In this document: positions 2,782 through 4,152 of the stretch, one piece after another | Position numbering within the stretch: the first letter of the stretch is position 1 | Layout: every line of letters starts with the position of its first letter | Origin: Escherichia coli | Lineage (GTDB): Bacteria > Pseudomonadota > Gammaproteobacteria > Enterobacterales > Enterobacteriaceae | Strand: one strand, 5' to 3' | Length of the DNA stretch: 64,000 nucleotides | NCBI RefSeq assembly: GCF_965641715.1 | Contig: NZ_OZ282453.1 | The notes under the pieces: generated by a model | The model's database searches: none | The model's input: only the letters and a program-made list of their open reading frames with translations | Told to the model about the DNA's origin: nothing | Position numbers and translations under genes: made by a program

Positions 2782-2856
2782 TGGAGCGGGTAGCGGGAAT
2801 CGAACCCGCATCATCAGCTTGGAAGGCTGAGGTAATAGCCATTATACGATACCCGC
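2782..2856 (-). tRNA. tRNA-Gly (anticodon UCC), phage-encoded, glyT-like
   Basis: 75-nt cloverleaf read by eye: acceptor GCGGGTA/TACCCGC, anticodon stem TCAGC/GCTGA, loop CTTCCAA, T-loop GGTTCGATTCC, 3' CCA. Confidence 0.85.
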
Positions 2857-3273
2857 ATACTATGCGGTCTTCAGTAATCACACGAATTACCGTGAAAGCC
2901 AGCACTGGTCTTTCCGACGGTAGTAACGCCCCTGTGAACACCAAAATAACCGTCTTCCAGACTGACGAGAATACTAACGACATTTTTTCAGATATCAAAA
3001 ATATATTTTGTTTTTAGTTTTTAATATATGTATGCATCTGTATCAGAAACATACAATTTATATCATTACTAAATTAAAAACATTTCTCTGACGTCTGATT
3101 AAAACGTTCCTGTTCCAGTTCCGCGCCAATCACACATGGTCATTGCGTTTTACCAGTCCATCGCCACTATCAGGCTGACCAGGGGACGCCCCACCCGAAC
3201 TGCTGAGAATGCCAGGCACACAAAGAATAATGCCCGCCAAAGCGTTCCTGCATACAATGACTGCAAAATTCAG

Positions 3274-4017
3274 TTATTCTTGAGCGGAGCCAGAACTCAT
3301 CTCACTGAATGCAGCCATCCTGTAACCTTCCGGGGTGACCCCAAAATAACGCCTGAATACACTGATAAAATAAGATGTATTATTATAGCCACACTGCACA
3401 GCGATTCTGTTGATGGCACAGCTATATTGATGCAACAGCATTGCTGCCATTCTCATTCTCTCCGTAAGCAACAACTCACTGAAACATGTGCCTTCTTCTT
3501 TCAGTCTTTTTTTTAACAAACTTTCACTCATACATAACCGTGATGACACATCTCGCAGAGTCCAGTTTGCTGCAATGTCTGTATGAAACAACGCACCAAG
3601 CCTGCCGCTGATAGTACTGATACACGCGGTCATAAACGACGAAAACATTTTATCTGATGAAAAAAACGCCAGACACGAAAAGGAAAGCATTTCCGCTAAA
3701 TTGTCCGTATGAATCTTTTCCTCATAAAGATAATCAATCAGGATGCCCATCAATTCTGGCCTGGGAAAACTCATGCAAAGATATCGTGGCATTTTCCGGA
3801 CTAAAACAACATCCTGTTTTACCCCACTACGCAACAGGTAACGGCTAATTGTCGATTCACTGAGACTTATACGCCGAAAACATTCAGAAAAGGGCAATAA
3901 CGGTCCAGCCCCTCCCCTGACAAGAAGTGCACTACCACTTTCCAGAGAGAGTACTTTTCCTTCGAAGAGCACAACAAACGGGGAATGAACAAAAATAACA
4001 GAACAGGCCTCATTCAT
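3274..4017 (-). CDS. AraC-family transcriptional regulator, AppY/EnvY-like (prophage moron)
   Basis: C-terminal AraC HTH (SESLLKKRLKEEGTCFSELL...VQCGYNNTSYFISVFRRYFGVTPEGY) resembling AppY of prophage DLP12; low GC; start chosen at internal Met (MNEACSVIF). Confidence 0.75.
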   Translation of the reverse strand: MNEACSVIFVHSPFVVLFEGKVLSLESGSALLVRGGAGPLLPFSECFRRISLSESTISRYLLRSGVKQDVVLVRKMPRYLCMSFPRPELMGILIDYLYEEKIHTDNLAEMLSFSCLAFFSSDKMFSSFMTACISTISGRLGALFHTDIAANWTLRDVSSRLCMSESLLKKRLKEEGTCFSELLLTERMRMAAMLLHQYSCAINRIAVQCGYNNTSYFISVFRRYFGVTPEGYRMAAFSEMSSGSAQE

Positions 4018-4127
4018 ATCAATATCCCTGACATTACTGGTCGCAAGATAAGTATATATCACTTTACAAAAATGCAAGCCGTGAGCCCCGAATTCACAAC
4101 CACCAGCGCGTTTAACACCCTGTGCCG

Positions 4128-4152
4128 TTTTTCAGGCATAAAAAAACCCGCA
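4128..4152 (-). terminator. tR'-like intrinsic terminator downstream of Q
   Basis: Minus strand reads GCCCGCTTTATGCGGG followed by TTTTTTT, about 110 nt downstream of the Q-like gene, as expected for a late terminator read through by Q. Confidence 0.5.

Follow-up and report, generated by a model that had tools for sequence, protein, structure and literature searches.

In the late operon of a lambdoid prophage of Escherichia coli, a gene for a regulator of the AraC/XylS family and a gene for a tRNA-Gly(UCC) are placed between a Q-like late antiterminator gene and the lysis genes. Both lie on the minus strand, between positions 2,782 and 4,152 of the 64,000-nucleotide stretch of DNA that was analysed (contig NZ_OZ282453.1), called here the window, which opens inside the prophage. 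The region is probably accessory ('moron') cargo, carried in an insertion slot of the late operon and made up of two independent modules for which we infer functions. Read along the minus strand, the order is Q-like gene, terminator hairpin, AraC/XylS regulator, tRNA-Gly(UCC), three terminators and the holin/endolysin genes; this anatomy is established, as are the family assignments and the integrity of both cargo genes. An earlier note, made from the letters of this DNA, had located the cargo between the Q-like gene with a tR'-like terminator and the lysis genes, and every element that it listed was found in its place. In relatives, the interval from the Q-like gene to the holin contains different cargo or none, indicating that the cargo is an insertion in a conserved operon. 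A close relative of the prophage occupies the same integration site, the Rac site, in strain PEC41, with a cargo region that is 99.5% identical. The genes of the slot and its edges are as follows.

4261..4803, minus strand: Q-like late antiterminator gene (DUF1133 / PHROG 753; Pfam and PHROG), the upstream edge of the cargo slot
3274..4017, minus strand: AraC/XylS regulator, 247 amino acids (aa), a subclade of its own (PHROG 1450) in the GadW/YdeO/AppY/PatE clade
2782..2856, minus strand: tRNA-Gly(UCC) of the lambdoid-phage lineage, with U6:A67 (ARAGORN, Rfam and cloverleaf minimum free energy fold)
1119..2323, minus strand: lysis cassette with Phage_holin_8, Phage_holin_3_7 and a GH108 endolysin (Pfam; PHROG 198, 'holin'), the downstream edge of the slot

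The regulator and its clade

The regulator is encoded in a minus-strand open reading frame (ORF) that spans 3274-4077. Translation probably begins at the ATG at 4017, downstream of AGGGA and a 7-nt spacer, to give the protein of 247 aa; this start was preferred because the 744-nt RefSeq gene in PEC41 and the aligned N-termini of relatives agree with it. The ORF is intact and no inactivating mutations were found in it, and its GC content is low (42.9%, compared to 48.2% for the window), as the earlier note had claimed. The protein passed the cut-offs of both Pfam HTH_AraC (58.9 bits, cut-off 26.6) and HTH_18 (57.5 bits, cut-off 33.6). Since a word-indexed protein search yielded 13 relatives, none of them named, we took comparison genes from K-12 and Sakai and compared them directly by BLASTP. 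PatE was the most similar (39% identity over 233 residues), followed by GadW (36%), YdeO (35%) and AppY (31%). These four alignments were full-length (233-255 residues, E 1e-36 to 3e-49), whereas only the C-terminal 127-141 residues aligned with GadX and EnvY. The earlier description of an AppY/EnvY-like AraC regulator was therefore right as to the AppY type, but PatE, GadW and YdeO are nearer and the likeness to EnvY is limited to the C-terminal DNA-binding domain. Likewise, among the three proteins proposed for alignment at that time, YdeO and AppY matched along their full length and GadX did so in its C-terminal half only. The top NCBIfam model was that of YdeO (NF007407, equivalog), with 144 bits under a cut-off of 348, while the GadX equivalog (NF007432) scored 104.2 bits against a cut-off of 500 and covered the C-terminal half only. 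Because these scores are far under the equivalog cut-offs, we consider the regulator to be a member of the clade and not the orthologue of any named member. This includes AppY, whose 31% identity is below that of PatE, GadW and YdeO and whose position within its prophage also differs. In a search for PsrA/PsrB, no homologue was found in Sakai Sp6, Sp7 and the start of Sp8.

The regulator shares with PatE, GadW, YdeO and AppY an N-terminal MxxxCSV and the helices SESLLKK...CGYxSxSYFI. All 23 invariant columns of an 11-sequence alignment of the clade were kept in it, including SESLLKK...L and CGY..SYF. Inside the clade it belongs to a subclade of its own, whose nearest members are 76-87% identical and the next relatives 39-43%, and the PHROGs family to which it was assigned (1450) is listed as function unknown. 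An AlphaFold (AF2) model (mean pLDDT 85, pTM 0.73) presented a strand-rich N-terminal domain and a C-terminal double helix-turn-helix. The modelled C-terminal domain superposed on the DNA-binding domain of GadX with a TM of 0.90-0.92 and a root-mean-square deviation of 1.1-1.3 A, and the same domain (3MKL) was also matched by sequence (E 4.8e-24).

PatE, PsrB and AppY, which are all encoded by prophages and belong to this clade or neighbour it, activate both gadE and hdeA and increase acid resistance (PMC10877973, PMC10057817). Because of these precedents and of the nearly identical recognition-helix motifs in the regulator, a rewiring of acid and stationary-phase gene expression would be, by analogy, its most likely role, to which we give about an even chance. 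The regulator might instead have other targets, either the late/lysis genes of its own phage or, in the style of Rns, CsvR and ToxT, other horizontally acquired loci of pig enterotoxigenic E. coli (ETEC) such as fimbriae and toxins, and a gut ligand such as a fatty acid, sensed through the N-terminal domain, might control it; we hold this main alternative to be rather unlikely, although several observations agree with it. The full-length model matched Rns (decanoic acid-bound), CsvR and ToxT (fatty acid-bound) in Foldseek (E 2.6e-12 to 7e-8), the three proteins were also found by sequence (E 6e-18 to 1e-11), the subclade always lies immediately before the holin, and the window allele is concentrated in pig ETEC/O139 strains. 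Those structural matches, however, reached a TM of only 0.40-0.43 with about 20% identity to Rns/ToxT, compared to the 35-39% of PatE, GadW and YdeO, which extends over the full length and includes the N-terminal domain. Moreover, two or three terminators separate the regulator from the holin and cassettes have been inserted there, which argues against a tight coupling to lysis in cis, and PatE and its 99%-identical copy in phage mEp332 are located elsewhere, near tail-fibre genes.

The regulator is under purifying selection. From 44 related viral loci and one genome we obtained 21 distinct alleles, of which 18 were intact and two broken, with dN/dS values against the window allele of 0.25-0.37 (about 0.27). 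The gene was present in 64 out of 5,426 complete E. coli genomes. The window allele accounted for 22 of these carriers, mostly pig ETEC and O139 strains, and an allele of 90-95% identity for the remaining 42, which came mainly from cattle and other animals. The regulator occupied the same slot in all 44 viral loci, with Holin_8 immediately downstream in 36 and a Q-like gene of the DUF1133 type some 250 nt upstream in 24; of the other loci, most end at a contig edge or have no DUF1133-type match upstream. The Q-to-holin slot repeatedly gathers regulators of the GadW/YdeO/AppY/PatE clade. In a prophage of the pig strain E. coli O139:H1 P15-25 (locus L012, 4019-4732), this slot holds another member of the clade (237 aa, 37% identity to the regulator of the window), which is followed by Ile-Thr-Gly tRNAs and by a structured trailer that is 99.6% identical to the one described below for the window.

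The tRNA-Gly cassette and its trailer

The second module comprises the tRNA-Gly gene together with the sequences that flank it, for which the following features were recorded.

2857..3111, minus strand: leader of the tRNA cassette; in other prophages, the homologous sequence lies downstream of a DNA methyltransferase gene
2657..2755, minus strand: trailer element 1, a conserved stem GGCACUG...CAGUGCU with a variable interior, followed by a U run
2580..2658, minus strand: trailer element 2, a conserved 79-nt hairpin rich in G.U pairs (fold z = -6.38)

ARAGORN found exactly one tRNA in the window, a tRNA-Gly with the anticodon UCC, which scored 65.6 bits with the Rfam tRNA model (gathering 29, E 6.5e-13). 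Both programs thus accept the cloverleaf, in agreement with the glyT-like tRNA-Gly(UCC) that had been predicted and for which ARAGORN had been named as a check. The acceptor-stem difference from host glyT that had been suggested on that occasion is also real: compared to K-12 glyT, the tRNA has two substitutions, C6>U and G67>A. The two bases concerned form a pair, so that the change from C6:G67 to U6:A67 is compensatory. U6:A67 was found in all six phage or prophage copies compared (683R6, two in SerU-LTIIb, JLK-2012, Z0117EC0133 and the window), and 71 out of 78 trailer-linked loci were of the U6 type; this swap marks a widespread lambdoid-phage lineage of tRNA-Gly. The host-type C6:G67 appeared in a few copies in phage context, namely RM11911, L112 and two among the 78 trailer-linked loci. 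The RM11911 copy (L062, 2645-2719) ends in CTCAA instead of CTCCA and may be a recent capture or a decaying copy.

In E. coli, the identity elements recognised by glycyl-tRNA synthetase (GlyRS) are G1:C72, C2:G71, G3:C70, U73, C35 and C36. By direct reading, all of them are present in the tRNA of the window and CCA is encoded; since the acceptor end, U73, the anticodon and the encoded CCA are unchanged, the tRNA is expected to be charged by GlyRS. For other tRNAs, it is established that phage-encoded copies can rescue translation from defences that target tRNA. By extension, the tRNA-Gly could be a counter-defence spare in which U6:A67 evades a toxin that acts on tRNA-Gly, be it a nuclease or a TacT/AtaT2-type acetyltransferase of Gly-tRNA. 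The pair is indeed present in nearly all phage copies and absent from host glyT. We nevertheless judge this explanation highly improbable, as no such toxin came to light in an analysis that made no search aimed at one, a few copies in phage context are still C6:G67, one compensatory pair may be no more than a neutral mark of descent, and TacT/AtaT2-type toxins recognise the acceptor end and the discriminator of tRNA-Gly, both of which are unchanged in the phage tRNA.

An exact copy of the tRNA was the best match in 268 E. coli records. We counted 6,572 glyT-like places in 5,420 genomes, about 1,150 above one per genome, and one of the tRNA-Gly genes of SerU-LTIIb is 100% identical to that of the window. 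In other prophages, tRNA-Gly closes arrays of the types Thr-Gly, Asn-Thr-Gly, Ile-Thr-Gly and Arg-Gly in the same Q-to-lysis slot. The arrays in 77 viral contigs were Thr-Gly in 51 cases, CAU-Lys-Thr-Gly in eight, Gly alone in five and a few others, and Gly was always the last. The phage tRNA-Gly is common and annotated in deposited records such as that of SerU-LTIIb, and we found no paper that discusses the tRNA. In the relatives L035, L036 and L055 (around 5098-5173) and in L008 (5606-5678), the same cassette holds a tRNA assigned as Arg(UCU); the body of this tRNA can be aligned with that of the phage tRNA-Gly, and its acceptor-stem changes are compensatory. The 'Arg(UCU)' of SerU-LTIIb is close to the phage tRNA-Thr(UGU), with the anticodon UCU in place of UGU. 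From their sequences, these tRNAs look like anticodon-shifted phage tRNAs that would be aimed at the rare AGA codon. A hint from a MAFFT alignment that about 80 nt upstream of tRNA-Gly are a relic of tRNA-Thr was discarded, with local scores of 12 and 17 compared to 13.3 +/- 2.4 in shuffles.

The regulator and the tRNA are independent modules and the tRNA cassette is a separate insertion. Both genes had been proposed as cargo of this region, and both are in the slot, but they do not constitute one unit: only five of the 44 viral regulator loci have tRNA-Gly, all of them with the exact regulator allele of the window, while three have the tRNA read as Arg(UCU) and 36 have no tRNA. The combination of regulator and tRNA occurs in 22 out of 5,426 genomes. 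In the tRNA-less relatives, the stop codon of the regulator is followed by the terminator T2, about 105 nt, the terminator T3 and the holin. The window has instead an insertion of about 620 nt (3111-2493) after a decayed terminator copy (3248-3221), and the start of the insertion corresponds to the sequence found at or after the 3' end of a DNA methyltransferase gene elsewhere in prophages. Megablast breakpoints fell exactly at both ends of the tRNA. Other pig strains have the downstream flank at 99.6% identity, where an Ile-Thr-Gly array precedes it, and the upstream flank recurs at 82-89% behind the methyltransferase. These breakpoints indicate that the tRNA serves as a junction for mosaic exchange.

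A mosaic region with breakpoints at both tRNA ends and one decayed terminator, carrying a regulator as rare as 64 out of 5,426 genomes with two of 21 alleles broken, might also be taken for inert recombination leftovers of a decaying prophage. This is hardly credible given the dN/dS of about 0.27, the 18 intact alleles and the 23 family-invariant residues that are all kept. In addition, the tRNA is identical or nearly so across many phages with all its identity elements, and the related PEC41 prophage has a nearly complete lambda-like gene set.

Downstream of the tRNA, the following 290 nt fold at z = -4.78 and this trailer closes with a U9-tailed terminator (region 2493-2781, minus strand). 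A 30-mer derived from the hairpin was found in 77 IMG/VR contigs, with tRNA-Gly upstream in at least 73 of 78 loci. In an alignment of 43 sequences, 96.3% of the trailer pairs were maintained, compared to 29-57% in slid controls, and nine pairs had changed on both sides, compared to 2.2 +/- 0.7 in shuffles. The helix of element 1 was paired in 99.7% of cases, with five of its seven pairs never varying. Since many of the exchanges are from G.U to A-U or G-C, they are sensible only for an RNA of the minus strand. Because the sequences were gathered through an exact match to 30 nt of one hairpin arm, the sample covers limited variation, and much of the covariation comes from a few divergent rows. 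The trailer is present in 285 out of 5,426 E. coli genomes and is never annotated there as RNA. Rfam 15 gave no family at or near its gathering score for 2330-2781; the highest score was that of sroB (24.5 bits, gathering 44, E 1.4) and the lowest E that of STnc100 (20.5 bits, gathering 47, E 0.048). A GcvB match in this interval (16.9 bits, gathering 42, E 0.38) was treated as chance. The presence of anti-small RNAs (sRNAs) of the AgvB/AsxR type in the terminator region found no support, with no Rfam match at E <= 10 and a similarity to the region downstream of stx2B in Sp5 that covers only 40 nt at T2. Because terminators on the plus strand are absent, a convergent pair of sRNAs is lacking.

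The trailer RNA is the least expected element of the region and its most promising lead. 3'ETS-leuZ is a known sponge RNA that derives from the 3' external transcribed spacer (3'ETS) of a tRNA. The conserved unit could be the tRNA plus its trailer, in which the tRNA would mainly act as a processing handle (RNase P and 3' processing) to free a regulatory RNA of the 3'ETS, or would mark an RNase III or stability element in the late transcript, with codon supply secondary. The fixed place of tRNA-Gly as the last of variable arrays, directly before the trailer, the folding and pairing figures given above with the U9 terminator, and the spread of the element over 285 genomes are in line with it, and sRNAs are known at the pR' moron site (PMC4104026). 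Nonetheless, we regard this as unlikely. The pairing statistics are bounded by the 30-mer sampling and the few divergent rows, the trailer matches neither AgvB, AsxR nor other Rfam families, its resemblance to Sp5 is confined to 40 nt that are terminator-like, and the intact and conserved tRNA fits a translational role. A wider proposal may be put forward tentatively: tRNA-Gly and trailer might be an undescribed lambdoid RNA module of U6:A67 tRNA, outer stem with U run and 79-nt hairpin, carried without annotation by about 5% of complete E. coli genomes, the trailer being either a regulatory RNA of the 3'ETS type or an element for processing or stability of the late transcript, and the regulator a new branch associated with pig strains that plugs into host stress networks.

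Expression of the cargo and its prophage context

The two modules as we read them, a clade regulator and a tRNA cassette, are accompanied by candidate promoters and by intrinsic terminators, most of which are conserved in relatives.

4223..4251, minus strand: pR'-like promoter candidate TTGCAT-17-TTCAAT, read by eye, with similar sequence in relatives that have the same Q type
4140..4161, minus strand: tR'-like intrinsic terminator CCCGC-TTTAT-GCGGG plus T7 (sequence reading and fold)
4051..4077, minus strand: promoter-like element of the regulator, TTGCAT-17-TATACT, then AGGGA-7 nt-ATG (8 of 12 consensus positions)
3221..3248, minus strand: decayed copy of the terminator that follows the regulator in relatives, aligning to the intact GGC(A/T)CGCTGCGGCGGGCC-T5 of L035, L023, L040 and A19
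2493..2519, minus strand: intrinsic terminator T1, the end of the tRNA cassette (consensus scan; stem changes across loci keep pairing)
2455..2477, minus strand: intrinsic terminator T2 (scan; directly after the regulator gene in tRNA-less relatives)
2343..2364, minus strand: intrinsic terminator T3, about 20 nt before the holin start (scan; conserved in loci with the same holin)

A tR'-like terminator after the Q-like gene had been claimed in the earlier note, and sequence reading and folding bear it out: the stretch 4130-4225 (96 nt from the presumed pR') folds at z = -4.16 with the tR'-like hairpin, whose stem and T run were invariant in 11 aligned loci, even where the upstream sequence is unrelated. 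The consensus scan missed this hairpin, probably because extension of the stem consumed the T run, and it did not call the pR'-like element at 4223-4251. Conservation of the 135 nt from the hairpin to the ATG extends to loci with unrelated DNA upstream of it, which indicates that the regulator cassette starts at the hairpin. Within them, the promoter-like core TTG(C/T)AT-17-TATACT was invariant in two allele lineages except for one Y in the -35; since the scan did not call this element and only 8 of the 12 consensus positions agree, we treated it as a candidate promoter. The leader of the tRNA contains a promoter-like TTGATA-16-TAGTAT (2998-2971, minus strand), detected by the consensus scan; across five loci that are 79-89% identical, its -10 TAGTAT does not vary and its -35 is conserved in part. 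In the same scan, the three terminators before the holin were called at 2519-2500, 2477-2460 and 2364-2349. The tR'-like hairpin and T1-T3 add up to four terminators from the presumed late promoter to the holin, which fits a Q-dependent late operon with the cargo insulated in the lysogen; the conservation of these terminators is established. Such an arrangement is known from Stx phages, in which tRNAs and stx are placed at the same site (PMC4104026). By contrast with the intact terminator of relatives, the copy at 3221-3248 folds no better than shuffles (z = -0.64).

Two further similarities were noted around these signals. Matches to the Gifsy-1 sRNA IsrK, below the gathering score of 50, were obtained on the minus strand at 6083-6164 (30.5 bits, E 0.0013) and at 4141-4214 (19.8 bits). 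The latter covers the short transcript from pR' to the terminator, the counterpart of lambda 6S RNA and of StxS. T2 and its flank (2455-2490, minus strand) resemble the sequence downstream of stx2B in Sakai Sp5 (L140, 6700-6740; 83% over 40 nt), a region in which moron-site sRNAs have been mapped (Tree et al.).

We propose that, in the lysogen, both modules would be transcribed from their own candidate promoters while the three terminators would block read-through into the lysis genes. After induction, Q-modified RNA polymerase coming from pR' would pass all four terminators and the cargo would be co-expressed with lysis, like stx. The regulator would bind AT-rich sites at host promoters of the gadE/hdeA acid-resistance type, as PatE, PsrB and AppY do, thereby altering the acid and stationary-phase physiology of its pig-associated host. 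The tRNA, once charged by GlyRS, would supplement the single-copy host tRNA-Gly2 for the GGA/GGG codons that are enriched in the prophage. Regarding these codons, GGA and GGG together made up 40.3% of the glycine codons in the PEC41 prophage, compared to 31.5% in the host ORFs of the window (p = 2e-4), and GGA alone 26.9% in early, nin and cargo genes compared to 14.4% (p = 3e-6). The Q-like gene was extreme, with 38.7 GGA per 1,000 codons and 9.9 in host ORFs.

Several points weigh against this scheme. The regulator shares 31-39% identity with its characterised relatives and failed the YdeO and GadX cut-offs, so that a confident transfer of target specificity is not warranted. The decay of the terminator after the regulator may mean that regulator and tRNA are co-transcribed and not independent. 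The promoter-like elements match the consensus weakly (8-9 of 12 positions) and one of them was read only by eye. As for the codons, the joint enrichment of GGA and GGG is modest, about 1.3-fold; GGA was not enriched in late structural genes (13.5% compared to 14.4%); and the prophage counts come from the relative PEC41, the window being without structural genes. Codon usage thus supports codon supply by tRNA-Gly(UCC) only modestly. The suggestion that the tRNA offsets codon-usage limits keeps the enrichment of GGA/GGG in the related prophage on its side, but GGA stays at the host level in late structural genes.

The prophage itself is lambdoid and its late operon runs on the minus strand. Homology to annotated genomes placed its integrase end at the Rac site (intR-ttcA) and identified an early region with racR, ydaS/T, kilR and recE/T. 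The lambda-like structural gene set of the PEC41 prophage is nearly complete. Among the complete E. coli genomes in the collection, none reached at least 80% coverage of window positions 5000-29900. The Q-like gene at the upstream edge of the slot scored 339.9 bits with Pfam DUF1133 and 257.8 bits with PHROG 753 ('anti-termination protein Q-like'); with Pfam Phage_antitermQ it barely exceeded the cut-off (27.7 bits, cut-off 26), and it gave a weak, short match to phage 21 Q in PDB (E 0.008, 27 residues). Besides the DUF1133 gene, a DUF1367 gene and a YbcO nuclease gene lie upstream of the cargo. A type I toxin-antitoxin locus of the hok/sok type was found at 6173-6497 on the minus strand, where the Rfam sok match (113 bits, gathering 59) at 6323-6497 overlaps a mok/hok-like ORF of 70 aa (6173-6385), the equivalent of which is annotated as hokD in PEC41. 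Two overlapping ORFs (310 and 184 aa, GC 34% and 31%) occupy 6755-8238 on the plus strand, against the direction of the prophage genes. RefSeq lists both as 'hypothetical', the 184-aa product resembles a membrane protein, and neither ORF had a match in Pfam or PADLOC; together they might form an accessory or defence cassette, so far unclassified, within the nin-like region.

Significance and comparison with known systems

Prophage AraC regulators (AppY, PatE, PsrA/B) are known to rewire host acid resistance, biofilm formation and type III secretion. An uncharacterised branch of such regulators in a Q-controlled late slot could tie host stress physiology to the state of the prophage in enterotoxigenic and oedema-disease strains. 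As for the tRNA, a lineage that derives from glyT and bears a distinct acceptor-stem signature is a common mobile building block of lambdoid late regions, and the structured trailer is a testable candidate for a new phage-encoded RNA element. These findings extend known categories and do not overturn current understanding.

The best characterised relative of the regulator is PatE (Z0321 / ECs_0287) of enterohaemorrhagic E. coli (EHEC) O157:H7, which is likewise prophage-borne and 247 aa long (39% over 233 residues) and activates gadE and hdeAB (PMC10877973). Unlike the regulator of the window, PatE is situated near the tail-fibre/invertase end of Sp1 and of phage mEp332 and not in the Q-holin slot. 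GadW, YdeO and AppY, from the AR2 network of K-12, are full-length homologues that share MxxxCSV and have near-identical recognition-helix motifs. AppY is prophage-encoded and acts on gadE (PMC10057817), but it is found at the far (right) end of DLP12, next to ompT. PsrA/PsrB (Z1789/Z2104) are AraC-like regulators of the GAD island in EHEC prophages that raise gadE/hdeA (PMC10877973); likened here by description only, they are the same kind of element, but they lie beside effector loci and not in the Q-holin slot.

As to the position, the pR' moron site carries cargo and sRNAs (PMC4104026), and the Stx and LT-II phages use the same Q-to-lysis slot (ileZ-argN-argO and stx in Sp5/933W, tRNA-Arg/Thr-Gly in SerU-LTIIb). 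The cargo of the window differs from theirs in being a regulator and not a toxin, and in its order, with the cargo followed by the tRNA. Its solitary tRNA is a minority form (5 of 77 arrays). Like AgvB/AsxR (Tree et al. 2014) and 3'ETS-leuZ, the trailer is structured and ended by a terminator, and it occupies the same moron site, directly 3' of a tRNA. It differs from them in that it matches no Rfam family, by sequence or by covariance model, and in that all terminators here face one way. Altogether, the components of this region have clear precedents in prophage AraC regulators of the GAD system, in the tRNAs and cargo of pR' moron sites and in morons insulated by terminators, while the regulator itself represents an uncharacterised branch.

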